Origin: Mytilus edulis | Lineage: Eukaryota | Direction: 5' to 3' | Assembly (NCBI RefSeq): GCF_963676685.1 | Contig: NC_092357.1 | Coordinates: forward strand, 9,362,001-9,426,000 | Length of the DNA: 64,000 nucleotides | Shown here: positions 1,564 to 60,040 of the stretch, piece after piece | Position numbering within the stretch: the stretch's first letter is position 1 | How the letters are laid out: the number at the start of each line of letters is the position of its first letter | Program-made: the position numbers and the translations under genes | Notes under the pieces: model-generated | What the model saw: the letters and a program-made list of their open reading frames with translations, nothing else | The model's database searches: none | Told to the model about the DNA's origin: nothing

Positions 1564-3310
1564 ACTTGACATTTCAGTATAACAATATCTGTCACATGAC
1601 ATTTTAGTATAACAATATCTGTCACATGACATTTTAGTATAACAATATCTGTCACATGACATTTCAGTATAACAATACCTGTCACATGACATTTCAGTAT
1701 AACAATACCTGTCATTTGACATTTCAGTATAACAATACCTGTCACATGACATTTCAGTATAACAATACCTGTCACATGACATTTCAGTATAACAATACCT
1801 GTCATTTGACATTTCAGTATAACAATACCTGTCACATGACATTTCAGTATAACAATACCTGTCACATGACATTTCAGTATAACAATACCTGTCACATGAC
1901 ATTTCAGTATAACAATACCTGTCATTTGACATTTCAGTATAACAATACCTGTCATTTGACATTTCAGTTTAACGATACTTGTCACATGAAATTTTAGAAT
2001 AACGATACCTGTCACTTCGAATTTCAGTATACCAATACCTGTCACTTGACATTTCAGTTTAACAATACCTGTCACTTCACATTTCAGTATACCAATACCT
2101 GCTAATACCTGTCACTTCACATTTGAGTATAACAATTCCTGTTACATAACATTTCAGCATAGCAATACCTGTCACATGACATTTCAGTGTAACAATACCT
2201 GTCACATTATATTTCAGTTTTACAATACCTGTCACATGACATTTCAGTATAACAATACCTGTCACATGACATTTCAGTAAAACAATACCTGTAACATGAC
2301 ATTTCAGTTTAACGATACCTGTCACTTGACATTTCAGTATAACAATACCTTTCACATTACTTTTCAGTATAACAATACCTGTAACATGACATTTCAGTTT
2401 AACGATACTTGTCAATTGACATTTCAGTATAACAATACCTGTCACTTGACATTTAAGTATAACGATACCTGTCACTTGACATTTCAGAATAACAATACCT
2501 GTCACTTGACATTTCAGTATAACAATACCTGTCACTTGACATTTCAGTATAACAATACCTGTCACATGACATTTCAGTATAACAATACCTGCCACATTAC
2601 ATTTCAGTATAACAATACCTGTCACTTGACATTTAAGTATAACAATGCCTGCCACATTACATTTCAGTATAACGATACCTGTCACATGACATTTCAGTAT
2701 AACAATACCTGTCACATTACATTTCAGTATAACAATACCTATCACATTATATTTCAGTATAACAATACCTGTCACTTGACATTTCAGTATAACAATACCT
2801 GTCACTTGACATTTCAGTATAACAATACCTGTCACATTACATTTCAGTATAACAATACCTGTCACATGATATTTCAGTATAACAATACCTGTCATATTAC
2901 ATTTCAGTATAACGATACCTGTCACTTGACATTTCAGTATAACAATACCTGTCACATGACATTTCAGTATAACAATACCTGTCACATTACATTTCAGTAT
3001 AACAATACCTGTAACTTGAAATTTCAGTATAACAATACCTGTCACATGACATTTCAGTATAACAATACCTGTCACTTGACATTTCAGTATAACAATACCT
3101 GTCACATGACATTTCAGTATAACGATACCTGTCACATTACATTTCAGTATAAAAATACCTGTCACATTACATTTCAGTATAAAAATACCTGTCACATTAC
3201 ATTTCAGTATAACAATTCCTGTCACATGACATTTCAGTATAACAATACCTGTCACATGACATTTCAGTAAAACAATACCTGTCACATGACATTTCAGTAT
3301 AACAATACCT

Positions 3311-3701
3311 AGTAATAAAATAAAATTAACGGTACCAATTTTCTTGCACCAGATGCGCATTTCGACAATACATGTCTCTTCAGTGATGCTCGTGGCCAAA
3401 ATATTTGAAATCCAAAGCTTATATAAAAGATGAAGAGCTATAATCCAAAAGGTCCAAAAAGTATAGCCAAATCCGTGAAAGGAATCAGAGCTTTGCATGA
3501 GGGAATTACATTCCTTAATTTATAATAATTTCTATCATTTTGTAACAGTAAATTTTAATAACACAAAAAATCCGTATTTTCATGCCAGTACCGAAGTACT
3601 GGCTACTGGGGTGTTGATACCCTCGGGGACTAATTGTACACCAGAAGAGGCATCGACCCAGTGGTAGTAATAAAATTAACGGTACCAATTTTCTTGCACC
3701 A
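3311..3701 (-). mobile_element. Hammerhead retrozyme (350-nt monomer plus about 40 nt of terminal redundancy)
   Basis: TAAAATTAACGGTACCAATTTTCTTGCACCA occurs at 3321-3351 and 3671-3701 (period 350); contains a type I hammerhead; splits a satellite unit (AACAATACCT|GGTAAATGAC). Confidence 0.85.
3346..3389 (-). ncRNA. Type I hammerhead ribozyme
   Basis: Minus strand: GCAUCA-CUGAAGA-GACA(UGUAU)UGUC-GAAA-UGCGCA-UC-UGGUGC. Intact core, stem I and stem II, with a palindromic stem III. Confidence 0.9.
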
Positions 3702-4282
3702 GGTAAATGACATTTCAGTATAACAAAAACCTGGTTAATGACATTTCAGTATAACAATACCTGTCACATGACATTTCAATATAACAATACCTGTCACTTG
3801 ACATTTCAGAATAACAATACCTGTCACATGACATTTTAGTATAACAATACCTGTCACATTACATTTCAGTATAACAATACCTGTCACATGACATTTCAGT
3901 AAAACAATACCTGTCACATGACATTTTAGTATAACAATACCTGTCACATTACATTTCAGTATAACAATACCTGTCACATGACATTTCAGTAAAACAATAC
4001 CTGTCACATTACATTTCAGTATAACAAAAACCTGGTTAATGACATTTCAGTACAACAATACCTGTCACTTGACATTTTAGTATAACAATACCTGTCACAT
4101 GACATTATAGTAAAACAATACCTGTCACTTGACATTTCAGTATAAAAATTCCTGACACGTGTCTTCTCAGTATAACAATAGTTCAGGCACAAGATATTTC
4201 AGTAAACAATTCCTGTCACATCGAAAAACCAATTGTTGCTACCAGAATTTTCACATGTACCTTTTCTGATATATAGTCTTAT

Positions 4283-5089: not shown

Positions 5090-5293
5090 GATAAACTAAG
5101 CCGTATTTGGCACACTTTTTTGGAATTTTGGGTCATCAAAACTCTTTATCTTGTTTTGGGGCCAGTTGAAGCATGCCTCCGGGTGTGGGATTTTCTCGTT
5201 GTATTGAAGACTCATTGGTGGCTTCGGCTGTTTTCTGCTTTTTGGTAAGGTTGTTGTCGCTTTGACACATTCCCCATTTCCGATTAACATTTT
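5090..5293 (+). mobile_element. Retroposon family B fragment
   Basis: Similar to 62120-62258; tail GACACATTCCCCATTTCC. Confidence 0.7.
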
Positions 5294-5762
5294 AATGAGT
5301 ATTTATAAATATTTGATTGATTGTATATCTGACCTATATTAATTGTACACATTTCACATTATCGACACTAGTAATTATACCGTTTCGTACGGTTAAGTTC
5401 AACGAACAACAAATGCATTATAAATATGATAATATTTCTGAAATACCATCCAATAACGTAAGCATTGCCTTAATTAAGAAATATTCGAAACACTGTGTAT
5501 TTTGTGGAAGATCATATCCAACCAAGAAGAAAACTTATATATGGAAGTATTTGAAATCACTAATTAAATTGTCAGCTAGTTATTTAGATTGTACGTTTGA
5601 TTTTGAGATTTACAAAAAGTTTCTTTTATACGATTTAAAAATGATACGAGAAAATGCACACAAAAAAGTCTGATGCACGAATAACTGATCAGCTTCTGAG
5701 CACCTATAGGTTGTCCGTCTTTTAGTAAGGGAAAGGATTGCCGATTGATGTCTTATCAACAA

Positions 5763-6120: not shown

Positions 6121-9100
6121 ATGGCTACTGACGCTCGTCCAAAGGTATTTGTCACTAGGAGAGTGCCTGCACGAGGGATTGACCTACTTAAAGATAAGTT
6201 TGTGGTGTCCCAATGGGATAGAGAAGACCGGATTCCACCAGAGGAGCTACTCAGAGGTGTCAAAGGGGTAGACGCTTTGTTCTGTTTGTTGACAGATAAA
6301 ATTGATAAAGATGTTTTAGATGCGGCAGGTATGTGTGAATTTATTAGTAAAGAATCTAAAAAAATATAGCTCGGCATTCTGGTAAACTGACACGAAAACA
6401 ATATTCTGTAAAAATAACGAATTTTCGCAAACACAATATATTGCCGGTATAATATTTATCTTGAATACGTCAACATCATGAACATGGTAAATGTTTGATA
6501 AAGTTCTTCCTTGCGTAGACCGTCGTATTCAGATCGGAAGATCAATTATTAAAGATGATCTCTTCCGTAACAATCAGTCAAATGGAGACTATTTCCCAAA
6601 ACGAGTAACAATATAATTTCATAGTTCTAAAAATTAAAAAAAGTGTTTTGCTGAGTCTTTTTATCCAAAATGTAATGTAGCCTTGAAAGTTGTCATAAGC
6701 TTTTAACTTCTCAGTTTCTTGTTGTGTATTATTTGGATGCTTTCCATGCTTTTGAAAATCCGCCTTTGGTCTTATATATATTGGTCTTTATATATAAAGT
6801 TTCTTTATCTTTTAATTTAATTAATAAACATTTCCAGACAGTTCTTTCTCAAATTGTTCGTCAACATTTTTCTATAATTATTGAGTGTTAAGGTATAACA
6901 AGCGTTAGCCTTGAAAAGGCTATTCGACTCTTATCTGATGAAAACGGAAAGTGCTCTCGCTTTGTAGATTAATTCATTTACTAGAATAGCCACGTGCATC
7001 AATCAGCAAATTTTACTACACACGTGAGGTCACACAGTGGCGGATCCAGGGGGGGGGGGGGGGGGGGGGGTTCCGGGGGTGCGCACCCCCCCTTTATTTT
7101 TGCCGATCAATGCATTTGTATCGGGACATATGTTTTGCACCCCCCTGCACCCCCCCCCCCCCTTTGCCCTGGGTTAGCACCCCCCCCTTTCGAAAATTCC
7201 TGCATCCGCCCCTGTCACACGCTATGAATTATTATCGTTTAACGTTGTTTTTTTTTGTTTACTCCAGAAGATTCGACTATTTATAGATAAAGGTTACCTG
7301 TGTAAAATCTAATTGCTAAAATAGAGAGGACAAATCCGATACTCTACGGGATTGAAGGACATTTACTTGGTTTGGATTGTCCTAACCAATCAATAAACTT
7401 TGATTATTCACGTCTCGTAATATCTTCCAATCAGGAAGCAAGACTGAAAAATTCACGCACTATCTGTCCATCGTTCAATTCTTAATCTCGACTAGGAGTC
7501 GAGAACAAAAGATAAAAATAACAAATTCAGGTACAAACGAGATTCTCTGATTTTTTTGTGAAAATAGCCAATAATATATATTGTTCATTTCAGGTCCTCA
7601 ATTAAAGACAATTTGTACGATGTCGGTGGGATACGAACATATTGATATATCAGAATGTAAAAAAAGAAACATTCCGGTCGGCTTTACTCCGGATGTGTTG
7701 ACCAATGCGACAGCTGAACTGACCATGTCTTTGCTTTTAGCAACCTCAAGGAGATTAAAAGAAGGTAAGATATAAAAAAAAGAAGATGTGGTATGGTTGC
7801 CACTGAGACAACTCTCTACAAGAGACTAAATGACACAAAATTAACAACTATAGGTCACCTGTTAATGTTAATGTCACCTGTCATTTGGTGTTTCTAGAAC
7901 GGCCTTCAACAAAGAACAAAGCCCATACCACATAGTCAACTATAAAAGGCCCCAAAATGAAAAATGTAAAACAATTCAAACAAGAAAAGATGTTCGTATG
8001 TTTAGGGCCTATTTTGCATGTTAAGGGTATATTTTAACAGAAAAGAAGGAGGACATGGGACATCCATCCATGACACACAAAAAAAATCGGTACATGCACT
8101 ACAAGAACCAAACCGGTTTTCAGTTTAACACAGAAAACTCTATATAATATATACGGCTTACGAGATCATTTTTCGTTTCCGATTGTTAGTTTTCACTTTT
8201 TGGACGGTTTTTTGTCTATTTTGTTTGTTTGATAGATATGGGACCATTCACGTGTTGATACTTGATATTTTAGTCAATGTACTTTATTAACCCTTGCATA
8301 AATTTGGATTTAGTCTGGAAGTAAAATAAGAATGTGCATTGTACCAACACCGTTTCTTCGTGTACAGCCTTACTTTTAAACTAATGTTATACATAAATAT
8401 GACAGAATATAGGTTTGTTTAAGTACCACAGGCACTTGTCTCAGATTTTTCCCCCTATATATCTTAATGTTATATTAAGGTATATAGGAAAAAAAATCTG
8501 AGACAAGTGCCTGTGTTATAAAGTACTATGTAAGTGAAATTCTTGGATCAACAATTTAACCTGTATCAACTATGTAGAATATATAATCACACCGATCCTT
8601 CTGCAACATCATCAGTAGTCTACAATTAAAACACACCGATTTCGTCACTAATCTATCTTTACAGCAATGACAGCCGTAGAGGATGGTAGTTGGGGCACTT
8701 GGAATCCTATATGGATGCTAGGACATGGCTTAGATGGCGCAACTGTTGGCATTGTTGGACTAGGTCGAATCGGATTGGCTGTAGCAAAATGTCTCCTGCC
8801 ATTTGGTGTTTCTAGAATTGTTTATAGTGGAAACAGTCAGTCGAAGAATGAGCAGGAGGTTAATGCTGAATTTGTTTCTTTTGACTATTTGCTGGAACAT
8901 TCTGATTTCATTTTGGGATGCTGCTCTTTAACAGCAAATAACATGGGACTATTTAATGCGGAAGCTTTCAATAAAATGAAAACTTCAGCGATATTTGTCA
9001 ACACTAGTCGTGGAGGGTTAGTGAATCAAGATGATCTTTACAACGCTTTAAAAAGTGGTAAGATAGCCGGTGCTGGACTTGACGTGACAAATCCGGAACC

Positions 9101-9263
9101 ATTACCGACAGACAGTCCTTTATTAACATTAAGTAATTGTTTGGTTCTACCTCATATTGGTAGTGCGACAGAAAAGGCAAGGAGTGCAATGTCAGAATTA
9201 ACAGCTAGAAATATCATAGCTGTATTCGATAATAAAGAAATGCCTAGTAGGTTAAACATTTAA
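6121..9263 (+). CDS. GRHPR: Glyoxylate reductase/hydroxypyruvate reductase (D-2-hydroxyacid dehydrogenase family), 325 aa
   Basis: Exons 6121-6328, 7594-7764, 8665-9263; GT-AG, phases 1/1, 978 nt. Motifs [29 protein letters not shown] (NAD(P) binding), [20 protein letters not shown]. Possible upstream in-frame ATG at 6037. Confidence 0.95.
7035..7214. mobile_element. GC-rich MITE in GRHPR intron 1
   Basis: TIR CAGTGGCGGATCCAG / CTGCATCCGCCCCTG; TCACA on both sides; poly-G and poly-C tracts. Confidence 0.8.
7773..7988 (-). mobile_element. Retroposon family A, 3' fragment in GRHPR intron 2
   Basis: Reverse complement of the family A tail (AAGAAGATGTGGTATG..GAGACAAC). Confidence 0.75.
8427..8515. 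mobile_element. Palindromic mini-MITE (same family as 60740-60821)
   Basis: CACAGGCACTTGTCTCA...TGAGACAAGTGCCTGTG near-perfect hairpin. Confidence 0.85.
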
Positions 9264-10449
9264 TAAACAAGGATTTTGTATGTGAAACTAGTAGTGTCTC
9301 ATTGGCAGTCATCCTATATCGTCTTCTTTTAAATTGATTGTTGCTCGCCATGCAGTATTGTATCATCTTGTATGGATCGATACAATAGGCTGTCCTTGTA
9401 CTTGTGGTGTATGTATTTGCTACTTTTATGATGTTTTTTTTTCTGGTATCTGTTGGAGAGTTGTCACATCTTCTAACTTTAGTTTCCTTATATTTCTTAT
9501 TTACAGGTCGTAGCCTTGTGAGAGAGCATTATATTTCTCTAGATTTCGTATGTTGGATAGTTGCCTCATTGTCAAATAGATCACACTTCCCTAGTATTAA
9601 ATATAAATTTACGCTTTGTTTGACTTACATAGTCTTACTACAACATTATACAAAGGTTAACAGGATCATTTACAAGCAAGGATCCGTGTTAAAGACCGTA
9701 CATTGACTTATAATGGTTTACTTTTATAAATTGTGACTTGGATGGAGAGTTGTCTCATTGGCAGTCATACCACATCTTCTTATATCTATATACATACTGG
9801 GAATTCACTGACAAACTACTTTAAGAAATGTAAACTCAGAGGCCTGTTATGGTGACCAAAATAAATGAAACTTGTCGTTGAAGTCAAACACAGCATAAAT
9901 TCATCGCAATCTAGAACTTTACAATGCATCTTACATGGAGGTTACACGTCTAGTTGTTTTGAACAAAACTGACATTTTTTAGTGTTAATTAAATTAGTGT
10001 GAAGGCAAAGAGTTGTTGCTAGTTGCTACGGTTTTTACAGAGAGCCTGTCACTCTCTATACTCATTGGCAGATCCAATTTTTCTATAAGGGATGATCCAC
10101 TGACTGACCTAAAGGGGCGTGCTCCAGTCATGCTTCGGTGATTCCCTCAAAAAGGGGGGGCTGGACCCTCAGCCCACTGGAACCACCTATGATAATTTAC
10201 GACTACAAGAATCATCAGACAACAAGTCCCCATTCTGCCCGGACGTGGGTGCTTTCTTATACATCCCGCAAAACCAAACCGAAGCCCCATTCTAGTGACG
10301 GCTTTATTGCCGGTCGGCAAAATTATATTTTAAATATGGAATCGTTGCATCGTCTTAAAGTCTCTCATACAGACTGGGTTCGTCTGACCTCGAAGTCATT
10401 TCATAGATAAGTGTTCAACTTATCTTATGTATGTTGTTTGATGTATTTA

Positions 10450-11440
10450 TATACTTGTGTGAAACATCTAGATACATCGTGTGGTGTATCTATATACGTG
10501 TGCGAAGCATCTAGACGGTTGTGTGATGTATCTAGATATTTGTGTGAAGTATTTATATGGTTGTGTGATGTATCTTAGACAAGGTAAATGTGTGAATCTT
10601 CTTGATACGTGTGTGAAGCATGTAAATGGTTGTGTGATGTATCTAGATATGTGTGTGGTGTATCTAGATACTGGTGTGAAGCATCTAGATGGTTGTGTGA
10701 TGTATCTAGATACTGTTGTGAAGCATCAAAATGGTTGTGTGATGTATCTAGATACTGGTGTGAAGCATCTAGATGGTTGTGTGGTGTATCTAGATAATTA
10801 TGTGAATCTTCTTGATACGTGTGTGAAGCATGTAAATTGTTGTACGATGTATCTAGATACTTGTTCGAAGCATCTAGATGGTTATATGATGTATCCAGAT
10901 ATGTGTGTGATGTATCTAGATACTTGTGCGAAGCATCTAATGTATGGTTTTGCGGTGTATCTAATGAGGGCCCTCATGGGGTTTTTGATTATGTGATTAC
11001 TTGGCCGTTTTTTTAATGATTATTTGATTATTAAGCCAAATATTTCATGATTATTTGATTACCTAGGACTGTATTTTTAGTTTATGATTATTTGATTACT
11101 AAAGATAAGCAAATATTTAATGATTATGTGATTATATTGGCAAAAAAATGGTGATTATGTGATTACTAGGACCCCCCCATGAGGGGCCTCTCTAATTACT
11201 TGTACGAAGCATCTAGATACTTGTGTGAAGCATCTAGATGGTTGTTTGGTGTATCTAGTTACTTGTGTGAAGCATGATGTATATTGATACTTGAGTAAAG
11301 CATTTAGATGGTTGTGCGGTGTATCTAGATACTTGTGTAAAGCATTTAGATAGTTGTGTGGTTTATCTAGATACTTGTATAAAGCATCTAGATGGTTATG
11401 CAATGAATCTAGATACTTGTTCGAAGCATCTAGATATTCG
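10450..11440. repeat. Minisatellite, about 42-bp unit (two 21-bp halves, TGTATCTAGATACTTGTGTGAAGCATCTAGATGGTTGTGTGA)
   Basis: Repeated TCTAGA-containing units, interrupted by a MITE at 10966-11190. Confidence 0.9.
10966..11190. mobile_element. MITE with GAG..CTC termini and 6-bp TSD
   Basis: TIR GAGGGCCCTCATGGGG / CCCCATGAGGGGCCTC; TCTAAT at 10960-10965 and 11191-11196; internal (GATTATNT)n. Confidence 0.85.
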
Positions 11441-11454
11441 TGTAAAAGAAGAAG

Positions 11455-22137: not shown

Positions 22138-23007
22138 CTACCATTTTAGCTTTCCCGGAACATATTTCTCCACAAGTTTTGTGTAATAAGGCACCAACTC
22201 CTCTAGCGGAGGAATATCTGGAGTTTTGGAATACAGATCAAATTTATTGAACTCGTTCACCCATTTCATCATTTCCAAGTCCTTGTTGTCGCACAGATAT
22301 TTGTAAGCACCGGAAGTGTGCCAGGGATAAAATGAATGAAACCGGATGCAGTATAAGGCTTCCTCTGGAAGATGGCAAGTATTTTCGGGAGCTTTCAGAA
22401 CACGGTAAAGATATTCATCGTGACCCCAAGACATGTAAACGTTTGTCAAACCGCAGTTTTCTTCGTAGATTCCTAGTTTCGTGTTGGTTTTCTCATTTTG
22501 TAAATCGGGATTGTCTTTAAAAAGTTCGGCGTCAAACACGATCGATTTATCGGGACGGCAGCCGACTGGAAAAGTATCTCCAACGGTCGAAAATTGTGGT
22601 TCACCCCACAGCGCCATTACTTTTCCAACATCATGGATCAAACCTGTAACTTGGAACCATTCGTTGTTAGGGTGTTTCTGTCGGATACCCTGGGCCGTTT
22701 GGAATGCGTGGACGGAATTCGGTACATCGACATCGGGGTCGCTCTCATCCATAAAATTGTTCAACATGTTTAGCGCTTCCATAATGCTCATCTCGCCATG
22801 GTTGAATTTGCACCAATATTCATTTTTCTTTTTCACATAATCCAGGGTCTGGGTAGTGTGCATTGCTCTATATGTATTGATCACTCTTTCGGGTGATGTG
22901 TGGATATCGAACGTACGGTAGTCATCTTTGTCTTTATATTCTGGACGGTATTCTGACGGATCTTCAAGAGACACCGAGCCTGGAAGTACGACTTGAGCGT
23001 TCGACAT
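22138..23007 (-). CDS. MIOX: Myo-inositol oxygenase, 289 aa, intronless CDS
   Basis: Motifs DESDPD, HAFQTA, GLIHDVGK, GDTFPVGC, SWGHDEYLY, RFHSFYPWH, FNKFDLYSK; di-iron His/Asp ligands present. Confidence 0.96.
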   Translation of the reverse strand: MSNAQVVLPGSVSLEDPSEYRPEYKDKDDYRTFDIHTSPERVINTYRAMHTTQTLDYVKKKNEYWCKFNHGEMSIMEALNMLNNFMDESDPDVDVPNSVHAFQTAQGIRQKHPNNEWFQVTGLIHDVGKVMALWGEPQFSTVGDTFPVGCRPDKSIVFDAELFKDNPDLQNEKTNTKLGIYEENCGLTNVYMSWGHDEYLYRVLKAPENTCHLPEEALYCIRFHSFYPWHTSGAYKYLCDNKDLEMMKWVNEFNKFDLYSKTPDIPPLEELVPYYTKLVEKYVPGKLKW

Positions 23008-23204
23008 GATCGTAGCATATGATTGTATTGAATGATCTATAGTCTACCTATGTATATAGTTTCAATTGATACTATACAATAAATCCGGTTAGAACCGCTT
23101 ACATTTTTAATACCTGTATAATCGTATAGTCTATTCCAAATAAGTTTGTTTTGGTGTCAAGGGATGTTCTCAAAACGTAATTTTTTTTGGTGATGGGAGT
23201 ACGT

Positions 23205-28319: not shown

Positions 28320-30012
28320 CAAAAGGGAGATTACATCAATAGATATAAACAATTCACCAGAGTTTCATGAGAATTGCTGAAAGCATTTTTGAGTTATTGT
28401 CTGAAAACTGGAAAATGCCCCCGTTTTTAATGAATAAAACCCCATAACTTAGATATGTAAAATCATAAATTTATAAAATTCTAAAAGGAGCTTACATCAA
28501 TAGATGGAAACAGGTCACCAAAATTTCTTGCTAGTTGGTGAAAGCATTCTTGCGTTATTGTCTGAAAACTGGGAAAAAAACCCCTTTTTTATGAATACAA
28601 GAGAGCACACACTGAAATGTCTCGCCTTCTTTACTAATCATTGATATTATGTTGATAGTCCTAAGTATAAAGCTTTATTACAACGGTACATAAACTTAAC
28701 ATTAACCAAGATAGCTAAACAAAGACCAATGAACCATGAAAATGAGGTCAAGGTCAGATGAACCATGCCAGGCAGACATGTACAGCTAACAAAGCTTTCA
28801 TACAACAAATATAGTTGACCTATTACTTATAGTTTAAGAAAAATAGACCAAAACGCAAAAACTTAACACTGTGCAATGAACCGTGCAATTGAGGTCATGG
28901 TCAAATAAAACCTGCGGGACTGACATATAGATCATAATATATTTCCATACACCAAATATAGTTGCCCTTTGGCATATTATATTAGATAAAAAGACCAAAA
29001 CTTAAAAACTTAACATTGACCACTGAACCATGAAAATGAGGTCAAGGTCAGATGACATCTGCCTGCTAGACATGAACACCTTACAATCATTCCATACAAC
29101 AAATATAGTAGACCTATTGCATAAAGTATGAGAAAAACAGACCAAAACACAAAAACTTAACTATAACCACTGAACCATGCAAATGAGGTCAAGGTCAGAT
29201 GACACCTGCCAGTTGGACATGTACACCTTCCAGTCCTTCCATACACCAAATATACTAGCCCTATTGCTTATAGCATCTGAGATATGGACTTGACCACCAA
29301 AACTTAACCTTGTTCACTGATCCATGAAATGAGGTCGAGGTCAAGTGAAAACTGTCTGACGGACATGAGGACCTTGCAAGGTATGCACATACCAAATATA
29401 GTTATCCTATTACTTATAATAAGAGAGAATTCAACATTACAAAAATTCTTAACTTTTTTTCCAAGTGGTCACTGAACCATGAAAATGAGGTCAAGGACAT
29501 TGGACATGTGACTGACGGAAACTTCGTAACATGAGGCATCTATATACAAAGTATGAAGCATCCAGGTCTTTCACCTTCTAAAATATAAACCTTTTAAAAA
29601 GTTAGCTAACGCCGCCGCCAAATCACTATCCCTATGTTGAGTTTTCTGCAACAAAGTTGCAGGCTCGACAAAAAGCTTCTATTAACTCAGAATTTATAAA
29701 AATAGAAAGGGAGCTCATGTCAATAAATATAATTAATTCACCAAAATTTCTTGCAAGTTGCTGAAAGCATTCTTCGATTTATTGTCCCAAAACTGGAAAA
29801 TCCCCTTTTTTTAAAATGAATAAAACCCACAACTGGGGAACATAAAACCTAAAATTTGGAAAAAATTAAAATGAAATCACGCCAATAGATATAAACAATT
29901 CACCAAACTTTTATACAAATTGGTTAAAGTGTTTTAGAGAAAATGTCCGACATGTTGACAACAGATGGACATACAGACAACCATAACACGTCCTGTAAAC
30001 AGGCTTATAAAA
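28320..30012 (-). mobile_element. HINE with internal repeats of about 160-170 bp, split by a nested HINE
   Basis: Units containing ATAGATATAAACAATTCACCA / CTGAAAACTGGAAAA at about 28340, 28500, 29725 and 29885; end with GGAC/AGAC-like repeat and TATAAAA. Confidence 0.7.
28597..29674 (-). mobile_element. Nested HINE carrying about 6 tandem units of about 147 bp
   Basis: TGAACCATGAAAATGAGGTCAAGG at about 28731, 28877, 29024, 29171, 29319 and 29473; (GCC)n and end TTGCAGGCTCGACAAAA. Confidence 0.8.
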
Positions 30013-32848: not shown

Positions 32849-35800
32849 TTACTCCTTCTTTTTTTCCTGTAAAGAGAAAAAATAATCACTCGTTAAATTT
32901 GAATTGAAATTGTAGAGTTCTATAAAAACACAGCAGATTGAGAGAAGAATTCAGATTCTCAACTATTGGTGGATGTCAAGTACTTATTGTGCCCCACATA
33001 GGGCCTTATGATTTTCAGTCCATCCCGACTCGGATTCTTAAAGTGTTTGGTTAAGGTAGTTTTTGATGAAGTTGAAGGCCAATCAACTTGATACTTAGTA
33101 CACATATTCCCTATGATATGATCTTTCTTAATAGGAGTTTTGACCCCCAATTTCACAGTCCACTGAAAATAGTCATAGTTGTTCACTCTCATAAATATCA
33201 TTCAATTTCATGTGGTCCTAAGTAACAACCCAATATTTTGTTCAGTTAAGTATTGTAAAGGACTCATAGCCGATTTTTTAATAATAAGTCTAAGTTGTCT
33301 AACGGCATTAACAGCGTTTTATCAGTTTTAATTCTTTGGTCAAAGAACATTTTGAAATCTTTGAAAACATGATAGGCCACAAAATAAATCCATGAAACTG
33401 TGTCACTAAAATATTACTGCTATAACTCTATGCACAAAAGCGGTAATTAAACCTAAACAATTTTGAATCTATCTAGTGATGTCAGTCTTTGCCAAACTGT
33501 AATAGGGTTTGTCTAACCGCAAAAGAAATTTGAAATTAATTGCTATATATTAAACCAAAAAATCCATTAAAATTCTGTCTGACCGAACGATATTTTGTCG
33601 GACATTTTGTCAAACAGACAGAGTTTGGGATACACTGTGATGTAAGACATTATCTTTTTGAACTGGCTAATTATTTTACTAACTTACCTTTTTGCCTAAG
33701 ATGATCATCAGTTTACGGAAGATGTTGATGAAGTCCAGGAACAAATCCACACTATGCCTGCAATAACAATAGGTTTAGAAATGTTATTTGATTTTACTTA
33801 CCATGCTTACAAAATGTTTAGAAATATTATTTGCAGTTCATTATCTTTTTAAAATTTAACAATGTATGTAATTTTGACCCAATGATTGATGGATTGTTGC
33901 TTGCTTAACATTTAGGATGAATATTCTGATCTTTCATCAGTTACTGTACTTTCAATATGATTTTATATGTAACACTATATGTCTACAGTCTTTATCTTAA
34001 GTGTGTATTGTTTTTTATTCATCTTCATTGGCTATATTTACCGTCAAATCCACATGTCTTAGGATGCCATTTTGAAATGCTCCAATTCTCAATGGCTCCA
34101 TTAATACAATATAATCTTAAATTTAACTGAAGTAACCTCAAAAATGCTGTTTCAATCAGTTTTAACCCTTTTCCATGGATATTTTTTTTTTAAAATACTT
34201 GATTCGCATAGGATTATTAAAAAAAAAATCAAAAAATCATCAGGTTTAAAGTATTGATGCATTGCGAAAAACGATTATTTCAACAATGAAATCCCAGTCA
34301 AAGATTCTCATGAATATCCTTTTTTTATATAAGATACAAATTTTTTAAGTCTGATAAAGTTTTTTCGTAGGTGAGACGTTTCAACTGAGTCACTACACAG
34401 GCATTAAAAGGAGTCATTATGGAGTAAAGGGCCAAAAGGCGTCATTATGGAGTAAAGGGCCAAAAGGCGTCATTATGGAGAAAAGGGTTTACCCTGATCT
34501 GAATCATACCAAATAAATAAACTTTCTTGTCATTTTTTTCATTTGTATGACAATACAGTTGTATGTTTTGCCATGATGTTTTTGCACAAAATCATTCATG
34601 ACATTTTACAGAATTTTATTTCATTTTCAAATAATACATTATTAAAAGCAATTATGTACAATTTTCTTTTGTAATGCTTTTGTGACTTTCTAATTGGCAA
34701 CAGAAAGTTTTCAACTAGTAACTTCAGTACTGGTAATCCATTAAGTTTATGTAGTGGTGCACTGATTATCTGAACCATCCATTAATTGGTTAATCTTGGT
34801 TACTTGGTTCGTTGATTGGTTTGAAGTGTGTACTGATTTCTATTTTGGCCTATATAGTACTGAGCCTCGAGGTCTGTTTTAATATACATGATACCAAGGG
34901 AAGGCATATACCTACATCTCAAATGTACTTTACATACATTTCACAGGGCCTTCCCTGGATATCATGCACATTGTAAGTGTAAATTGACAGATGTTAGAAA
35001 CATTGTTTGTTCTTTTTAAATAAGATTTTAATTAAATAATAATTTACCAGATAAAGTCATCGTCTCCATTACGTTTTTTCTCAACAATAAGTTGTGTGTC
35101 GTACAGGACAAAGGCACAGAAAATCAATAATCCAGCATGGAGGTATAACTAAAAATAGAAAAAAACCAAGATAAAATCTACAAATATGACTATTGGATAA
35201 TTGTACAGCATAATTCCAATATAACTTGTTTTTAATCTGTAATTTTTTACATCTATTTTCAAGTTTTGCCAAGGCTTTCAAGGTCTTACACAACACCTGC
35301 ACATGGAGATGTATTTTAAAATTTCAACCAGAATCTAAACAAAATTTGTGGTACAATGAGAGGTAAATATAATGTCCGACTCCCATTATAACATGTATAA
35401 ATGTTTAATACATGTACAAAATGTACATGCATGACATGTAGAAGTACTTATCTAAATACAGTCATAATATCAATTTCTGTGTCATTTTGGTCTTTTTGTA
35501 ATTGTAAATTTTACCACATCTTCTAAGCCACCAATTCCCTCTAGTAACATGGCAAGATTTGAGTAAATTATTGATATAACTACTAAGACAATTCAGACAA
35601 AGCAGCCCCGTGATAACATGTTAAGATCTGAGTAAATTATTGATATAACAAACTTACATCCCAAATCATCTGAGACACTGAACCCCCTCATAACATGGTA
35701 AGATCTGAGTAAATTATTGATATAACAAACTTACATCCCAAATCATCTGAGACACTGAACCCCCTCATAACATGGTAAGATCTGAGTAAATTATTGATAT

Positions 35801-38800
35801 AACAAAATTACATCCCAAATCATCTGAGACACTGAACCCCCTCATAACATGTTAAGATCTGAGTAAATTATTGATATAACAAACTTACATCCCAAATCAT
35901 CTGAGACACTGAACCCCCTCATAACATGGTAAGATCTGAGTAAATTATTGATATAACAAACTTACATCCCAAATCATCTGAGACACTGAACCCCCTCATA
36001 ACATGGTAAGATCTGAGTAAATTATTGATATAACAAACTTACATCCCAAATCATCTGAGACACTGAACCCCCTCATAACATGGTAAGATCTTAGTAAATT
36101 ATTGATATAACAAACTTACATCCCAAATCATCTGAGACTGGAAGAAAATGTTCATGAATCCCAACAGCATCAACCAACTAAGTCCAGACATCAGAAACCC
36201 TGAAAAATACAGTTTCACGCTCACTATGATTATCTGAACATACAGTGATTTTAAATGCACTTCATATAACATATTTAATTAAATTTCTCTAAATAAAATG
36301 CAAACTATTGCAAGTTCATAGGAGTTTTCTTTCTTTTTTAACTACCTGCGAGTAAAGTTTGACAGCAATATTTGTTGAAATTATTCGCTGATGTATGTAT
36401 CGTCATGATCATGTACATCATTGAACATGTGTATGATGTGTATGGACAATGTGAATGCAATTTACAATTACACATTATTACATGTATGACTTCTAGATCT
36501 AGAGTGGGTGTCTAATAAAGTTAAGATATTATATACAGAAAAGCTAAACACATTTATGCCTTATAAGATTTCTTTGCATTTTTGTTTTCAACAAATGATC
36601 AAATCTTTTCATCTAAATTATCTGTAAACCAACAACTTTCCAAATGTATCTTCAGACTTAAATGCTAACAGAATATCTGTACTTACCACCCATGTATAAA
36701 AAGGTTCTATCTGTGTTGTATAATGCAGCCAAAGAAAAACTGACAAAAATCACAGTAGTGGCCATAAAGGCTGTTGCTATTATGCTGAAAATAAAACATA
36801 AACAATATTAATATTAATATCAAGATGAGGTGAACTCATGTGCGATTCTTTATAATGGATTTACTGGTAATCATATGAAAACTTAAATTATTTTTTAATC
36901 TGGTGGATTCAATGGCTGACTATTAAAGCAGTGTGAGTTTAGGTCATTGTTGAAGGAGATACTGTGACATAAGTTGTCTCATTGGATGTCATCAATGACT
37001 TACAATGAACATTGTTAGTGACCTAAGGTTGCTTACATGAACATCAATAGATTTTAGAGGATATTTGTCTCATTCAGTGTTCTCCCCAGAATTTTCAAAT
37101 AACAACTTGGAAATTAACATTGCACTGGTTTTCCAAAAAAATATACTACCATGGACCCTATATATATTCTATAATAACATCATCCAAGATAGCACCAGGG
37201 TACGATGGTGCTTGAAGGCCCTGGGGAGAACACTGTGACATTGGAAGTCATATTACATCTCTCTATTTTTATACTAAGTTGTTTAACTGTAACATGCTGG
37301 TCAAATAGGCTAAAGTCTGAAGGAAGACATTTCATCCGTGTTAGATGGTTTTTCTGACCTTGAGCAGATCAATCTTTGCTCCTACTTCTCTTTGCCTAAG
37401 GGAGAACCAGCAAATGCTAATTTTAAAGTCTTTTACTTTGACCAGCTAGGAATTGAACAAACAACCTTCTACACATGTACAATGTACATGTGCACAATTT
37501 GTCACATGTACAAAATGTACTTAATTCAACCTTAAAAATTACTTAAACCATTATAACAGCAAAATTATAATTCTTATGCAATTAAACATGTACATGTAAC
37601 CATTGTAACACCAATTTTGATTGCAGAGGTCTTTCATTGATCATTTTGATACTAGGTTGATAGTCAAGTTATTGACAACAACATGGCACAATTGCAGTCA
37701 CTGTACATGGTTTATTTTACAGTATACTCATGTACTCAAAATGATTACATTTGTAATTTTGAAAATTTTAAGGATTGCATTAGAAATGAAATTTCACTAC
37801 TGTAGCAAAATAGTTGCCACTGCCAATAATTGGTAAATTTAGATTTGACAGGCTCTGCCTCATGTCTACAGTAAAATGGCATTAATAACTGCCAAATCCC
37901 TGATTGATAGTAGCAACTCTTCTAATACTGTACTGTTATTTTTAAACAACATAACGATGTACATTTATTATTCTAACCTGGGATCAATGTCTATAACCCA
38001 ATCCATGACTGGACCAAGTGACATTCCACTGAAAAAAGTAAAACCTGTAAAGATGGCCATTCTCTTCATCTGTGTCTCTTTTGAGTGATGTGTCATTGCC
38101 AACCATATCATTAGTCCAATGGAGGCTATCGAGGTGAGGAAACTGTGCTGCAAGTAGTAATGAAAAATATAATCTCATGTACATGTATGATGTGTGAGTG
38201 CCAACAGATGCGTACAAAATGGTCAGTCTTGAAACAGGAGCCTAAAACTACATTGTACAAAATGTTGTATGTCCTACTGGTTTTGCTAATTGCTAATTAC
38301 TGAAGGTCATTAAATTTATAGTTGCCAACTTCTACTGATGAGAATACTGTTAAGTATTCCACATTCCAAACTAAAAGACAAATTGAAAGAGTTGATATTA
38401 CTTTGCTTCATAAAAAAGAATGGCCAACGTAGATACAAGTATCTTGTCTTAGGGAGGGATAAATCCTACTTTGTAAAGAATCACTCTGATTCAAACAAAA
38501 AATTCTCTGAAACTGATATTATCAAGATGCTTGATTTCTTGATTGACAACATATTTGTTACGTTCGGAGGACGTGTTTTTCAACAGACTGTCGGCATTCC
38601 AATGGGAACAAACTGTGCCCCTCTACTCGCCGACTTGTTTCTTTATTATTATGAGGCTGACTTCATGCAGGAACTTCTTAGGAAGAAAGATAAGAAGTTA
38701 GCAATATCCTTTAACTCTACTTTCCGCTATATAGATGATGTTCTTTCACTAAACAATTCAAAATTTGGTGACTATGTGGAACGCATCTATCCAATCGAAC

Positions 38801-40982
38801 TAGAGATAAAGGATACTACAGATACAGTTAAGTCGGCTTCATATCTTGACTTACATCTAGAAATTGACAATGAGGGTCGGTTGAAAACAAAACTTTACGA
38901 CAAAAGAGATGATTTCAGCTTTCCAATTGTGAACTTTCCATTTCTAAGTAGCAACATTCCAGCAGCACCTGCATACGGGGTATATATCTCCCAATTGATA
39001 CGATATTCCCGTGCTTGCATTTCCTATCATGATTTTCTTGATAGAGGTTTGCTGCTCACAAGGAAGCTATTAAACCAAGAGTTCCAAATGGTGAAGTTGA
39101 AATCATCCCTTCGTAAATTTTACGGACGCCATCACGAGTTGGTTGACCGTTATGGAATAACAGTTTCACAAATGATATCAGATATGTTCCTTACGTCGTA
39201 ACTACAATCCCCTTCCCTTTCATGAATATGACCTACCGAATTAGACTATTTACCGGATTTGTAATCACTTAAGCAACACGACGGGTGCCACATGTGGAGC
39301 AGGATCTGCTTACCCTTCCGGAGCACCTGAGATCACCCCTAGTTTTTGGTGGGGTTCGTGTTGTTTATTCTTTAGTTTTCTATGTTGTGTCGTGTGTACT
39401 ATTGTTTTTCTGTTTGTCTTTTTTATTTTTAGCCATGGCGTTGTCAGTTTGTTTTAGATTTATGAGTTTGACTGTCCCTTTGGTATCTTTCGTCCCTCTT
39501 TTATATGATAAATTTACAATTTCAAATTCACAAACAGACATGAGAGGTTATACAGCAGCATGTATTCATATTGTGACTCATGGTCATGATTACTAATAAG
39601 GCCATTAAACTTTACTCTCTTCAAATGTTCCTAGAAAAAGGATACCTACCCTCATAAGACCAGTAAACAGGTGGACATAGGCACCTACACCAGCAGCTAT
39701 CATGGCTATAGATAGAGTTCCATAAACTTTCTTCAAATGCTCCTGTACATTTCTTTCTCTGAAGAAATTATGAAAGAAATATTTAACATGTTTAAAGGAA
39801 CATTGTTTCAACCTCTGACTATATTAAATTTATTTATGTCATGTTCAAATGTACATTTTACATGTACATTATGTATGCGAGATAAAAACCAGTGTCTGTT
39901 AGAAATGCATGTGAAAATTTAAAGAGATATATATGTTTATCTTGTTGCTGATAACATCACAAATTGCATCCATTAAATGACAGTCTTTCACATAGAATGA
40001 AATGTTCTTAACCAGACATTGTTGTAAACTTGGTAAACATGTAGCAAACATGTTGAAAATACATTTGTTTTAAAAGTCAATAAAACATGAAAAATGGAAG
40101 TAGCATCTTTTCAAGAAAATAAAAAAAAAGATGCTAGTGTACATGTAGATTGATGCCCTCTAAATTAAAATCAGCACCTCTCAACTGTATGGATTATATC
40201 AAGCATACATTTAACTCAAGTGTTTGTTTGTTTCATCATCTTGGACTTATCAAAATTCAGTTTAACCTCGAAAAACAACCACAGAAAGAAGGTGTTAGTG
40301 GTACACAATTTATTTAGAGGCCAGATTAGGATTATCTGTGGATGCAGGATTTTTTCACTGCATTGAAGACTAATGGTGGACTTCGGCTGTTGTCTTCTAT
40401 TTGACATATTACCCATTTCCAATCTCAATTTTATACAATACAGTAGTCAGTAGATCTATGCAAGTTTTTTATTTTTTGAAACATAACATGCATTTGAATT
40501 TTATATACCTAGGGCTAGGACAGTCTAGAAGATGCATTCATAAACAAATTTGCTGATGCACAGGTTTCTCTGCAATCAGTAGTAACAGAACATAGGAAGG
40601 CGTCCCAGAAAAAAATTAAAAATAGACTTGCCAGACGTCATAATTATTTGGACTATAACAGATGGTGTCGGTGTTAATTTCTTCAGAACCAAAATACTAT
40701 TATAAAAAAAACACGTTTCAACCCGTCTTCAAAAAATAACTTCTGAGCCTTTGAAATTTTTGTCACTTCAATTAAGTTTAAAAATAGCATCCTCATAGAC
40801 ATACGCAAAAAACAAGTTTTACTTTCGTTTTTAGAAATTGAAATTATATAATTGTACATGTCAGTTGTGTAAGGAGTTAAATGGGATACATATTTGTTTT
40901 TGTTCAGTTTAACTTACATATGGTCAAATTTAAATAGAGCTGCCGGCAAAAATTCATCATTTCTTCTTCTTGTGCTTGTCAT
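32849..40982 (-). CDS. TMBIM6: Bax inhibitor 1 (TMBIM family), 236 aa, 8 coding exons
   Basis: Exons 40982-40918, 39758-39650, 38147-37978, 36784-36687, 36199-36120, 35148-35048, 33757-33688, 32866-32849; all GT-AG and phase-consistent, 711 nt. Motifs HLKKVY, GAYVH, LYDTQLIVEK, WHSVDLFLDFINIFRKLM, basic C-terminus KKEKKKE. Confidence 0.96.
34166..34487. mobile_element. piggyBac-like MITE in BI-1 intron 6
   Basis: TTAA|CCCTTTTCCAT ... ATGGAGAAAAGGG|TTTA; right end triplicated as 28-bp units. Confidence 0.55.
35545..36138. repeat. 77-bp tandem array overlapping the BI-1 exon 5 3' end and splice donor
   Basis: CTTACATCCCAAATCATCTGAGAC at 35653, 35730, 35807 (ATTAC variant), 35884, 35961, 36038 and 36115, plus degenerate partial units. 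Confidence 0.95.
37075..37235. mobile_element. MITE with CAGTGTTCTCCCCAG TIRs (hAT-like)
   Basis: Perfect 15-bp TIRs; TSD not clean. Confidence 0.75.
38353..39503 (+). mobile_element. 5'-truncated Penelope-like retroelement (RT C-terminal half plus 3' UTR), antisense in BI-1 intron 2
   Basis: ORF to 39201 with SIPH, GIPMGTNCAPLLADLFL, FRYIDD, YLDL, KLYDKRDDF, GVYISQLIRY; no C-terminal GIY-YIG domain. Confidence 0.85.
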
Positions 40983-44160: not shown

Positions 44161-47100
44161 TGTACCTTCATATGTGAAGTACTGTCTAATCTTTATCGAT
44201 AAAAAAGATTCTCCAATTCAGAAAAAAATGAGATTTTTCTAGTATATAAAGTAAACAAACTGGAATGACTATAGGAAAGAATCAAGAATACAGACTACTG
44301 GTATCCTTTTCAAACCAAATGATTATGAAGAGCCTGCATGTTGTAACAACACTAGTTGACATATGACTTCGCATTCTTATTTAATTTTTAACGTTTTTAT
44401 ACTGATATTTTCATTATTTTTTTTAATGCGAAGTGTGGCACATTGATAGCAATTTTTTTTTTATCAGAACAGTAAATAGAAATAATAAATAATGCTCCCG
44501 ATGTCATATATTATAGGACTTATTACCCACATACTCATTAAATAAGTAACTAGTGACATAATTATTTCTGTTACTTGAAGCAAATTCTATTTCTGTAGAT
44601 TTACACAATAGCATAATATTGTTATACTATTTTTATTTCACCTTGAAGATTAGACAAATAGGGATACTCCTTTGATTTTTTATTTCATGTCAGTCAGGTC
44701 GCTTTATATGAAACTTGAAACCACTTCTCTGCCATATTGATATTTTATAACAACTCTGCTCATGACCCATATAATTGAGATTCATTCTTTAACCGTATAT
44801 CATAGTAAACTAGTTTTTTATTTTGCACTAACCCACCATCTTTCATGTCAAATTTATGTCTCCATTTAAGTTTATGCCATTGAACCATTATGGTATTAAA
44901 CACAATTCCAAGTAATTATGCTGTTATAGTAGGTCACCATATATTACACTTGTGTGGCATTCCAGTTATTGAAATTTGTGTCAGATTAGAACAATGAACT
45001 AGACCTTTATAAATGGATCTCATAATTTAGTATGGCGCCATAGTATGCGACCCCTGCCCAGTAAGAAAAATGAACAAACTTGAAAGGATACATGTCAAGC
45101 GAAAAAATTTATCACCAGAGATTACAAGTCAAGAGAGGATAGATACGTCTCCAAAATGCTTGCCAAACTGGAACTACAACAAGATCTCCAGACAAGGACG
45201 AACAATGCGTTGAAGCCAAAGTTAGTATTTATGTAAAAAGTAGTTGAGGAGCTATTCACGCTATTGAACCAGGCGAATTCCTCAAAAAGCATGTCCGAAG
45301 AGAACCATAACTGCCGAGAAATTCAAAGAATACCACGCAACAATTATTGTTGAAAAGCAAGTAAAGAATAACTCTAACTGTGAGTGTATTGACATTCCGC
45401 ATCAAGTAAAACACCGTAAAATATTCAAACTCATCCTTTGTAAGACAGTGATCTCGTCGAATCAGCTGGACGACACTGCTGTGCACGCATCAAACGTAGA
45501 GAGCTTTAAATCTGTTCTCACGCCCCGCCAATACATCGGCGGCGCTCTCTCAAAACGTTGTATTAAAGCCAGCATCGATATCAACAATTTATTCACATGT
45601 CACACAGATACAGTCTGTTACAGACTCTGCTGCTGTAACTTTGTAAACAAAGATTGAGTCGGGCCCAGTCTGCGTCGTTAAACACTAGCCCGATGCCCCA
45701 GACTAGTATTACATTTTATGATACTGTCTTATGATCATAAGCAAGCTTCTGTCCAAGTTTGGTAGAAATCCAGTATAGTTTAAGAAGGTCATTAAAATTT
45801 CAAAAACTTTTACCACAAAGTGAACATTTGTGGCCGACCACGACGACGCACGGAATGTTGATCAATGTTGGATCGCTATGTCTCGCTTTTTCGACTAAAG
45901 TCGGAAGGCTCGATTAAAATGAAGTCAATAATTTGGCCATCACCCCAATTCTATATATCAATGTTGAGGGACACCAATACTCTCATTTAAAAACACTGAC
46001 AACATATCACTGACTGGACGAAGCAATGTTAGAACTGTTACTTTCGTGACTTTGAAATGCACGAAAATAACGCTTTATAAATTTCGTGCAATCAAAGTTT
46101 CCGGTATGAACTTAATCCAAAACTGTCTAAACAGAAGTACACATATATAATATATATAAGACAAAACTATAACATCGATTTATTTGTATAACATCCTCAA
46201 CATTACAGAAATTTTAACTGGCAAATCTAGATGCGGCATTCAACTTTGGAATTTCCAAAATGGCTGCCGTTACCTTGGAAACACGGCAAAAATATCAAAA
46301 TGCTCAAAACTTCGTGAAACTTTACAAAAATGTTAAACATCATTCATAGATGTGGCATTTGACTTTTGAATTTTCAAAATGGCCGCCGTTGCCATGGAAA
46401 CAGCAGAAAAGTACAACCTAACGCTATGAAAACCAACAGAAATATCTGTTGTCATGCATATATCTGCATTCCCTGATGGAAAACTTCGAAATACAAACTG
46501 TAACTTCCAATTTTATTGACCGAAATATACAGATACAACAATGATCATATTTAACTGACAACGCCCTGGCTAAAAATAAAAAGACAAACAGACAAATAAT
46601 AGTACTTTGACACAACATGGAAAACTAAAGACTATAAGCAACACGAACCCCACCAAAACCTGGGGGGGGGGGTGATCTCAGGTGCTCCGGAAGGGTGCGC
46701 AGATCCTGCACCATATGTGATACCCATCGTGATGATTATGGTATATTACAACAACAATATAAATGATACTTTACAATTTTTATTAGAATTTTCAAAATAC
46801 ATTCAGCAATAACAGAGTTAACAATTTTATTTGATTTAAATTTTATCTAACATCGACTTCAGAATTTCATCGTTGTTAAGTTTATATCCAGCATTGTTCA
46901 CTAACAGCTTTTGATGTTTAGTCTTAGTTTCTATTTCAGCAGCTGATATAACCTACAATGACATGCAAACCACATATAAAGTAATCGAATCATCCAATAG
47001 TGAATCTCTTGTAAATTTCAATTTCTTTGAAAAGTGAATTCTGGAAAGTTCAATATTACTAGCTATTAAGTTATAATTTGTGACATTTGTTTTCCATTCC

Positions 47101-59379: not shown

Positions 59380-60040
59380 TGTAAGGGTTCCGCGGAACCC
59401 AGTGTCGCGCCTACTTTTGCTGTAAATCACAGGCTCAACAAAAATGAGGATAAAAATCAATAAAAATATTTCTATTGATGCTATCTTTTGAGTGTAAGAA
59501 GCTTCTGTCCAAGTTTGGTAAAAATCACGGATAGTTTATGAATATTTTTAAATGTTTTAAAAACTTTATCTGCAGACTGTATGTAATGTTAACTGGAAGA
59601 AAAACTAAGTCCATTTGCAAGTAAAATACAGATACACAGGTAAAAAGTATTAACAAAATTTCCTTCTAGATACTAGCTTTTGATCATAAACAAGCTTCTG
59701 CCCAAGTTTGGTTCTGTTTAAAAAAAGTATAAGAAAGTTATTGAATTTTTAAAAATATTAACCATAGAGTGAATGTGTTGTTTCATGGCAGAAAATCTAA
59801 GTCCATTTAAAAGTAAAATACGGAAAAAATGGATTTATTTTTTTACAAAATTAACTTCTGGAAACTATCTTTTAATCATTAACAAGCTTGTGTCCAAGTT
59901 TGGTACAAACCCAGGATAGTTTAAGAAAGTTATAAAAATTTCAAAAACTTTAACCACAGAGTGAATATTTGTGGACGACTACGACGACGACGACGCCGAC
60001 GGAATGTAGGATCGCTTAGTCTCGCTTTTTCGACTAAAGT
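59380..60040 (-). mobile_element. HINE with three internal units of about 193 bp
   Basis: AAGCTTCTGTCCAAGTTTGG at about 59499, 59692 and 59884; (GAC)n microsatellite; terminal hairpin GGGTTCCGCGGAACCC; fragment at about 45715-45918. Confidence 0.8.

Follow-up and report, generated by a model that had tools for sequence, protein, structure and literature searches.

The retrozyme insert and its host satellite

The DNA analysed here (the window) is a 64,000-nt stretch of the Mytilus edulis genome (NC_092357.1, positions 9,362,001–9,426,000). A 30-bp satellite (1567–4221) is interrupted in register by a 391-bp insert on the minus strand (3311–3701); according to TRF, the satellite runs from 1567 to 3310 before the insert and resumes at 3707–4221. 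The insert is a retrozyme insertion of 1.1 monomers, 97–98% identical to its best genomic copies. Read on the minus strand, it comprises one 350-nt monomer (3352–3701; +1 to +350, counted from the predicted cleavage site of its hammerhead) and a second round of 41 nt: 33 nt (3351–3319, +1 to +33) lead up to the point where copies of the family end, and a further 8 nt (3318–3311) repeat template positions +29 to +36, resulting in a 5-nt duplication. This confirms the sequence-only reading of the locus, which had described a minus-strand insert with a 350-nt monomer, a type I hammerhead and a second round of about 40 nt. The only open frame of at least 150 amino acids across the insert is satellite read-through.

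The insert had also been said to start exactly at the cleavage site and to lack a target site duplication (TSD). Its end does coincide with the cleavage site within 1 nt, but this boundary is ambiguous by one base, since 3702 fits the satellite and hammerhead C17 alike. As for the TSD, two readings keep the 30-bp register. Without a duplication, one change from a unit variant present twice in the array is needed, whereas a 4-nt duplication (3312–3315 and 3703–3706, with the insert at 3316–3702) requires two; absence of a TSD is the more parsimonious reading. The satellite target resembles template positions +32 to +37 at five of six bases. The 8-nt repeat may reflect a first reverse transcriptase (RT) start at +36/37 and re-priming at the usual UU register, which would produce the 5-nt duplication; locus L115 has a similar reiteration.

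Elsewhere in the window are an uninterrupted 301-aa frame matching myo-inositol oxygenase (22138–23043, minus strand; PF05153, E 1e-107), a 2-hydroxyacid dehydrogenase NAD-binding frame (8652–9263, plus strand), a 613-aa KY-like Ig-domain frame (50048–51889, minus strand) and further tandem arrays at 10434–11443 (21-bp period), 28718–29343 (147 bp), 35606–36138 (77 bp) and 59495–59966 (192 bp).

A type I hammerhead in a dispersed and transcribed family

The type I hammerhead of the insert (3346–3389, minus strand) has a 2-bp helix III with a palindromic loop. The predicted cleavage site lies between 3352, the last base of its core (CUGAAGA..GAAA..AUC), and 3351. The Rfam search suggested with the sequence-only reading gave no hammerhead call in the insert, either at the gathering score or at E ≤ 10, but the core is complete by inspection and its helices covary. 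In the window as a whole nothing reached the gathering score, and only chance matches were obtained at the insert and at the Naiad hairpin described below. The hammerhead is not formed in minimum-energy folds of the monomer. Across three families of this genome the three helices are paired in 93.9% of cells, with one double-sided change each (reached by 0 of 500 shuffles for cells and by 196 of 500 for the number of pairs).

In the genome, the 32-nt hammerhead core has 3,336 exact matches. The family consists of dispersed, low-GC repeats, arranged head-to-tail at 350-bp spacing in arrays of up to ~10 units, and has neither LTR nor ORF. Judged by these features, together with the complete type I core and transcription of the family, the insert is a metazoan non-LTR retrozyme, as had been proposed. 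Such elements are known from Mytilus galloprovincialis, where they form ~350–390-bp low-GC tandem repeats with a type I hammerhead (about 5,000 copies, two ribozyme families), where self-cleavage and abundant circular RNA have been demonstrated, and where Penelope-like elements (PLEs) have been proposed as helpers (Cervera and de la Peña 2020, PMC7229834). The class is thus published and this family probably is too; the accessible part of that work contains no map of insertion ends and does not say to which clade the helper belongs. A sister family has 3,596 exact cores and a unit of ~365 nt.

Transcription was analysed in raw RNA reads from other animals, which bear the species label of a genome holding the family. 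Between 602 and 1,841 reads per run belonged to the family. Sense reads were in excess in two of four runs, and in three runs 120, 80 and 9 reads covered head-to-tail joints. These joint reads fit circles and linear multimers alike. Where the window copy differs from the family, the reads carry the majority alleles, its private alleles being nearly absent.

Hammerhead copies with a different tail were also sought; the 52 rows obtained resemble decayed retrozymes. A third hammerhead family (L219:185–610, L199, L226, L229) combines a near-identical core with a tail of ~410 nt that ends at (TA)n, as Neptune PLEs do; its flanks are covered by 218–305 reads per RNA run, and it is possibly a Neptune-mobilised counterpart.

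Retrozyme copies share a fixed 3' end

The ends of retrozyme copies were mapped in two sets. An unbiased set was drawn from the first 100 listed cores (62 of 67 clusters, giving 63 blocks; blocks without an exact core, including one at L036 that starts at 350, fall outside it), and a second set from 39 other top BLAST loci (40 blocks). The 3' end lies at +32 to +42 in 62 of the 63 unbiased blocks, 45 of them at +32 to +34 and mostly at +33/34, and in 39 of the 40 top-hit blocks. The two deviating blocks are each part of an interrupted array. The sister family behaves likewise: 28 of 30 rows have their 3' end at the homologous point, and the remaining two represent a single array that was shortened by the aligner. 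It is this fixed 3' end that is the informative junction of the family. No report of it was found in the literature searched, a body from which subscription papers, Repbase and two supplements were absent.

Junction sequences were compared at 100 junctions (3 of the 103 blocks were dropped). The base after +33 is A in 69 of 100, and beyond it agreement with the template falls to background. Duplications starting from the terminal TT (+32) measure at least 4 nt in 27 of 100 junctions (7.3 in shuffled pairs) and at least 5 nt in 17 of 100 (2.8 in shuffled pairs). A clear duplication is present at only about one-third of the loci (best match of at least 5 nt in 32 of 100, 10 expected).

In the RNA, mixed flanks at +33/34 occur in reads of all four runs, and no pile of molecule ends was seen at +33 in these runs.

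5' ends are scattered and copy lengths continuous

For 5' ends, a genome-wide pattern covering monomer positions 329 to +12 gave 211 rows, the first 100 of which were tallied by eye. After 37 of these had been left out as indel variants, internal deletions or duplicates, 63 true ends remained; re-checking 30 rows by script revealed a few disagreements of 3–13 nt. The ends are flat over the interval, the 4-nt cleavage window holding 10 of 63 against 7.4 expected (p = 0.20). In the unbiased set only 1 of the 63 blocks has its 5' end within 348 to +1. Copy lengths point the same way. Among 60 lengths (two duplicates removed, one interrupted array merged) the truncation hazard is 0.0031 per nt in the first and second round alike. 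Given flat 5' ends and equal hazards, the coincidence with the cleavage site at the window locus is most likely chance, one draw from a random distribution. The sequence-only reading had regarded this start as meaningful and had named randomly distributed genomic 5' ends as the result that would speak against it; such a distribution is what was found, and that part of the reading is not supported.

An alternative in which the start would retain its meaning is that the template was a linear multimer cleaved by the hammerhead, the 5' end of the window copy being RT run-off at the cleaved end. Besides the proximity of the insert end to the cleavage site (within 1 nt), it could draw on several inserts of 33–37 nt that begin at +1 and on RNA ends at +1, which on one reference appeared in two of three raw-read runs (16 of depth 58 and 18 of 49) and on a permuted reference were below threshold in all four runs. 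Narrower patterns also gave 34 raw matches at the cleavage window and 16 at a neighbouring one (26 and 12 without indel variants and apparent duplicates), where a rough estimate of pattern efficiency predicts a ratio of about 1.5, so that a mild excess at the cleavage window is possible. Against run-off stand the flat histogram and the constant hazard, the fact that only 1 of 24 unbiased copies of at least 384 nt ends at the cleavage window, and the small number of 33-nt inserts, which linear monomers should give in bulk. We regard run-off as unlikely.

Retrozyme loci span 0.1 to ~10 units, with lengths that are continuous and geometric through two rounds. Past two rounds the hazard declines to 0.0018 and then to 0 of 5. 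In all 10 of 10 arrays analysed, the units share 1–16 variants and show 0–0.7 other differences per unit. Near-identical units and a falling hazard would both be expected if long arrays grew after insertion by unequal exchange rather than by rolling-circle copying, the model of a 2026 preprint. The continuous geometric lengths speak against this; in addition, unequal exchange is inapplicable to the 1.1-mer of the window and leaves the fixed 3' end unexplained. We find it doubtful as the source of the long arrays. Identity within arrays could also stem from later amplification or from assembly polishing.

At several loci whose 5' end falls in the cleavage window (L131, L140, L152, L160 and the window copy), the insert reads as a duplication followed by C and UGGUGC and so extends one base past the junction; such inserts are too few for a stall to be called. 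An apparent 5' hotspot at query position 301 in the BLAST listing was an artefact of that listing and disappeared once the loci were retrieved.

Naiad elements carry the sequence behind the fixed end

PLEs of the genome were surveyed through their GIY-YIG domains (150 of 858 candidates scored, 50 stretches examined). The elements it yielded were for the most part of Neptune type, with (TA)n at the end, and included one Naiad; within this sample no element of the Penelope/Poseidon clade was recognised. Genomic copies of this Naiad stop at the pLTR end, and what follows that end is homologous to the retrozyme from +34 onwards (alignment score 58.5, against a maximum of 42 in 2,000 shuffles). A protein search then gave three Naiad families (A, B and C), and in all three a hairpin motif lies behind the 3' end, just before the start codon. 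The Neptune-type PLEs of this sample were considered as helpers and rejected: their ends are in (TA)n, their 5'UTRs show no such match, and the sole hairpin match is weak, covering 29 nt antisense inside an ORF. Another hairpin-bearing helper besides Naiad may exist.

Naiad C forms a tandem unit of 3.37 kb (3,370 bp) without a hammerhead core; canonical hammerheads are absent from the Naiads. Its 995-aa ORF contains, in order, an N-terminal GIY-YIG, CxC, GxKF/Y and DKA motifs and a C-terminal RT, and a pLTR tandem is present. By these features family C belongs to the Naiad PLEs; Pfam matches to RVT_1 (E 8e-5) and GIY-YIG (E 0.03) both fall below the cut-off. Families A and C resemble the Naiads described by Craig et al. 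(2021, PMC8557442) in the N-terminal GIY-YIG, CxC, GxKY and DKA motifs, pLTR tandems and 5' truncation; by eye, family A is similar to Naiad_Mgal. Naiad C has 8,279 exact matches to its 3' end in the genome and intact open frames of ~1,000 residues. One of its copies, 5'-truncated, is found in the window (38352–39504, plus strand; 99.7% identical to the 3,370-bp unit over 1,153 bp), with an RT ORF at 38314–39201, and represents the likely helper family. An older 3'UTR fragment related to Naiad C (85% over 188 bp) occupies 46553–46738 on the minus strand.

The only strong match between the monomer and the Naiad C unit joins +32 to +100 with the last 2 and first 67 nt of the unit (84%, E 5.5e-17), whereas over the 40 nt before the RT start only 19 of 43 columns agree. 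Insertion signatures are alike as well. The base after the Naiad C 3' end is A in 24 of 29 cases and TT-led duplications of at least 4 nt occur in 7 of 28 (1.7 expected), so that retrozyme and Naiad C share a TT|A end and short TT-led duplications.

Within the window insert the shared segment is at 3602–3668 (minus strand, +34 to +100), directly behind the fixed 3' end; 56 of 68 nt are identical to Naiad C, and the segment folds and covaries as described below. We predict that it is a signal for RT recruitment. The presence of a fixed 3' end before a hairpin common to the Naiads suggests that Naiad RT copies retrozyme RNA. The earlier proposal of a probable Penelope-like RT is thereby supported, and narrowed to Naiad by the in-register hairpin and the matching end signatures.

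Of the 54 Naiad consensus sequences in PMC8557442, 12 begin with the hairpin core (8 from bivalves, 3 from hemichordates and 1 from a fish) in a search by exact 8–10-mers, which more divergent versions would escape. The hairpin pattern matched no viral contig; the 7 metagenome contigs that it did match are retrozyme-like or Naiad-like and add no new hosts.

Within the 3'UTR and pLTR of Naiad B and a relative (L332:630–863 and 5185–5418; L347, L348) lies a decayed stretch that resembles a retrozyme; its hammerhead is broken, and it is 69–71% identical to the sister family over 230–245 nt. This stretch is either a retrozyme capture or a trace of retrozyme origin.

The shared segment folds into a conserved hairpin

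Retrozyme and Naiad versions adopt the same long hairpin fold (z −2.2 to −3.5). In a circular fold of the monomer the hairpin forms and +32 to +34 are mostly unpaired (0.6–0.74). Covariation was assessed in 15 sequences, only the two outer helices being counted because both rows of Naiad A are wrongly aligned at the inner stem. These helices are 97% paired and 7 of 12 pairs change on both sides, a number reached by 0 of 500 shuffles and compared with 0–2 in slid controls, although the significance is overstated because the rows are related (few independent lineages) and the structure was derived from the same sequences. When Naiad A is left out, double-sided changes affect 8 of 23 pairs. Independent support is provided by the 12 published consensus sequences, whose outer stems differ yet still pair (by eye).

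The window monomer differs from the family majority by six substitutions. Four of these six private changes sit in the hairpin and weaken its fold (z only −1.05); chance, RT error in a structured region and assembly error are all possible causes. The Naiad A hairpin (L232:4412–4507, minus strand) has an extra side hairpin of ~23 nt where the second and inner stems join, and published Naiad-1_Skow apparently has a side hairpin at the same place (by eye).

Two other roles for the hairpin were weighed. It might serve transcription or RNA stability, for example as an internal promoter element, having been inherited from Naiad while another RT does the copying: the internal promoter of Penelope overlaps its 5'UTR (PMC8557442), and the decayed stretch in the Naiad B 3'UTR (71% over 245 nt) indicates that sequence has moved between the two kinds of element. 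Against such a role, two retrozyme and three Naiad families all have 3' ends whose register with the hairpin is exact, end signatures are alike, and compensatory pairing points to a role at the RNA level; we consider it quite improbable. Alternatively, the RNA might be cut immediately 5' of the hairpin, which would act as a processing signal or be an unknown ribozyme itself, so that the RT would start at a true RNA 3' end in the manner of LINEs. HDV-like ribozymes cleave at their own 5' edge. The hairpin mirrors that position, and the Naiads do without canonical hammerheads, but it has no Rfam match and folds as a simple hairpin. Moreover, molecule ends do not pile up at +33 in the RNA reads, some copies (the window insert included) carry template bases past +33, and array-internal units are uncut. 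Such cutting is in our view very improbable.

DISCUSSION

The insert is a 5'-truncated copy of a retrozyme whose family has a fixed 3' end directly before a hairpin shared with Naiad, and was likely made by a Naiad RT-endonuclease starting internally at that point on an RNA that was probably circular. Tandem retrozyme copies are transcribed, as the RNA runs document at the level of the family, and the hammerhead would excise monomers that are ligated into circles, by analogy with the published retrozymes of M. galloprovincialis. A Naiad protein would then bind the hairpin (+34 to +100), and its endonuclease would nick AT-rich DNA at TT(A), so that the 3' AA of the primer could pair with U32–U33 and synthesis proceed upstream; we infer nicking and priming at this position from the fixed end, the A that follows it and the TT-led duplications. 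After 33 nt the RT would pass the hammerhead junction and continue, dropping off at ~0.3% per nt, a rate that would account for random 5' ends and for loci of 0.1 to ~10 units. As the hairpin would be copied only when the RT goes most of the way round, short copies would be devoid of it.

All inserts longer than 33 nt crossed the cleavage junction, which implies a template intact there. The earlier proposal of a template longer than one monomer is supported. The lack of run-off at +1 and the near-identical units within arrays would best fit a circular template; an uncleaved multimer, or later amplification of arrays, is possible.

Internal initiation has a precedent in a Poseidon PLE, PAc of Anolis. 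In vitro, its RT starts internally in an AC-rich stem-loop region and requires RNA 3' of the start, the element cuts AT-rich DNA at ATT, and hammerhead cleavage is dispensable (Frangieh et al. 2024, PMC11167929). As described in the accessible text, PAc differs from the mussel retrozyme in being autonomous, in its C-terminal endonuclease and in having two start sites with a tail, 85–92 nt past the cut; a linear template was tested. A link between retrozymes and PLEs has been drawn by Li, Clavereau and Pollet (2026, bioRxiv 10.64898/2026.07.22.740005), who conclude from homology to hammerhead-bearing pLTRs in Xenopus that non-LTR retrozymes depend on or derive from PLEs. The accessible text of that preprint is centred on vertebrates and mentions neither mussels nor an initiation site or stem. 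In the mussel, by contrast, what is shared is sequence beyond the pLTR end, and the closest partner unit, that of Naiad C, lacks a hammerhead core. Neither a conserved 5' hairpin nor a non-autonomous Naiad partner is named in the accessible text of Craig et al. (PMC8557442), although the hairpin can be seen in the consensus file. The general PLE–retrozyme link is already made in the preprint. In the literature searched, we came across neither a Naiad 5' hairpin nor a role for Naiad as retrozyme helper; subscription papers, Repbase and the supplements of PMC7229834 and of the 2026 preprint lay beyond this search, and these two supplements may bear on novelty and on whether the family is identical to the published one.

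Which retrotransposon copies animal retrozymes, and what it recognises, was an open question; according to the accessible part of a 2020 review, retrozyme repeats show no conserved motif that points to a helper (PMC7761336). The fixed 3' end and the in-register hairpin now name a candidate protein (Naiad C) and a candidate signal of 67 nt. They also suggest that internal initiation, so far described for one Poseidon element, extends to the permuted Naiad clade. In a broader view, which we favour by a narrow measure, Naiads of bivalves, hemichordates and a fish would carry an undescribed hairpin of ~65 nt that sets the RT start just upstream, much as telomerase-like RTs are positioned on their template. 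Mussel retrozymes would then be RNA circles in which this signal, once captured, is combined with a hammerhead, and a retrotransposon without hammerheads would roll them into the genome. The hairpin would thus act as a portable tag by which a circular RNA becomes a substrate for target-primed integration. The proposed start would explain how a circle, which has no 3' end, can template target-primed reverse transcription.
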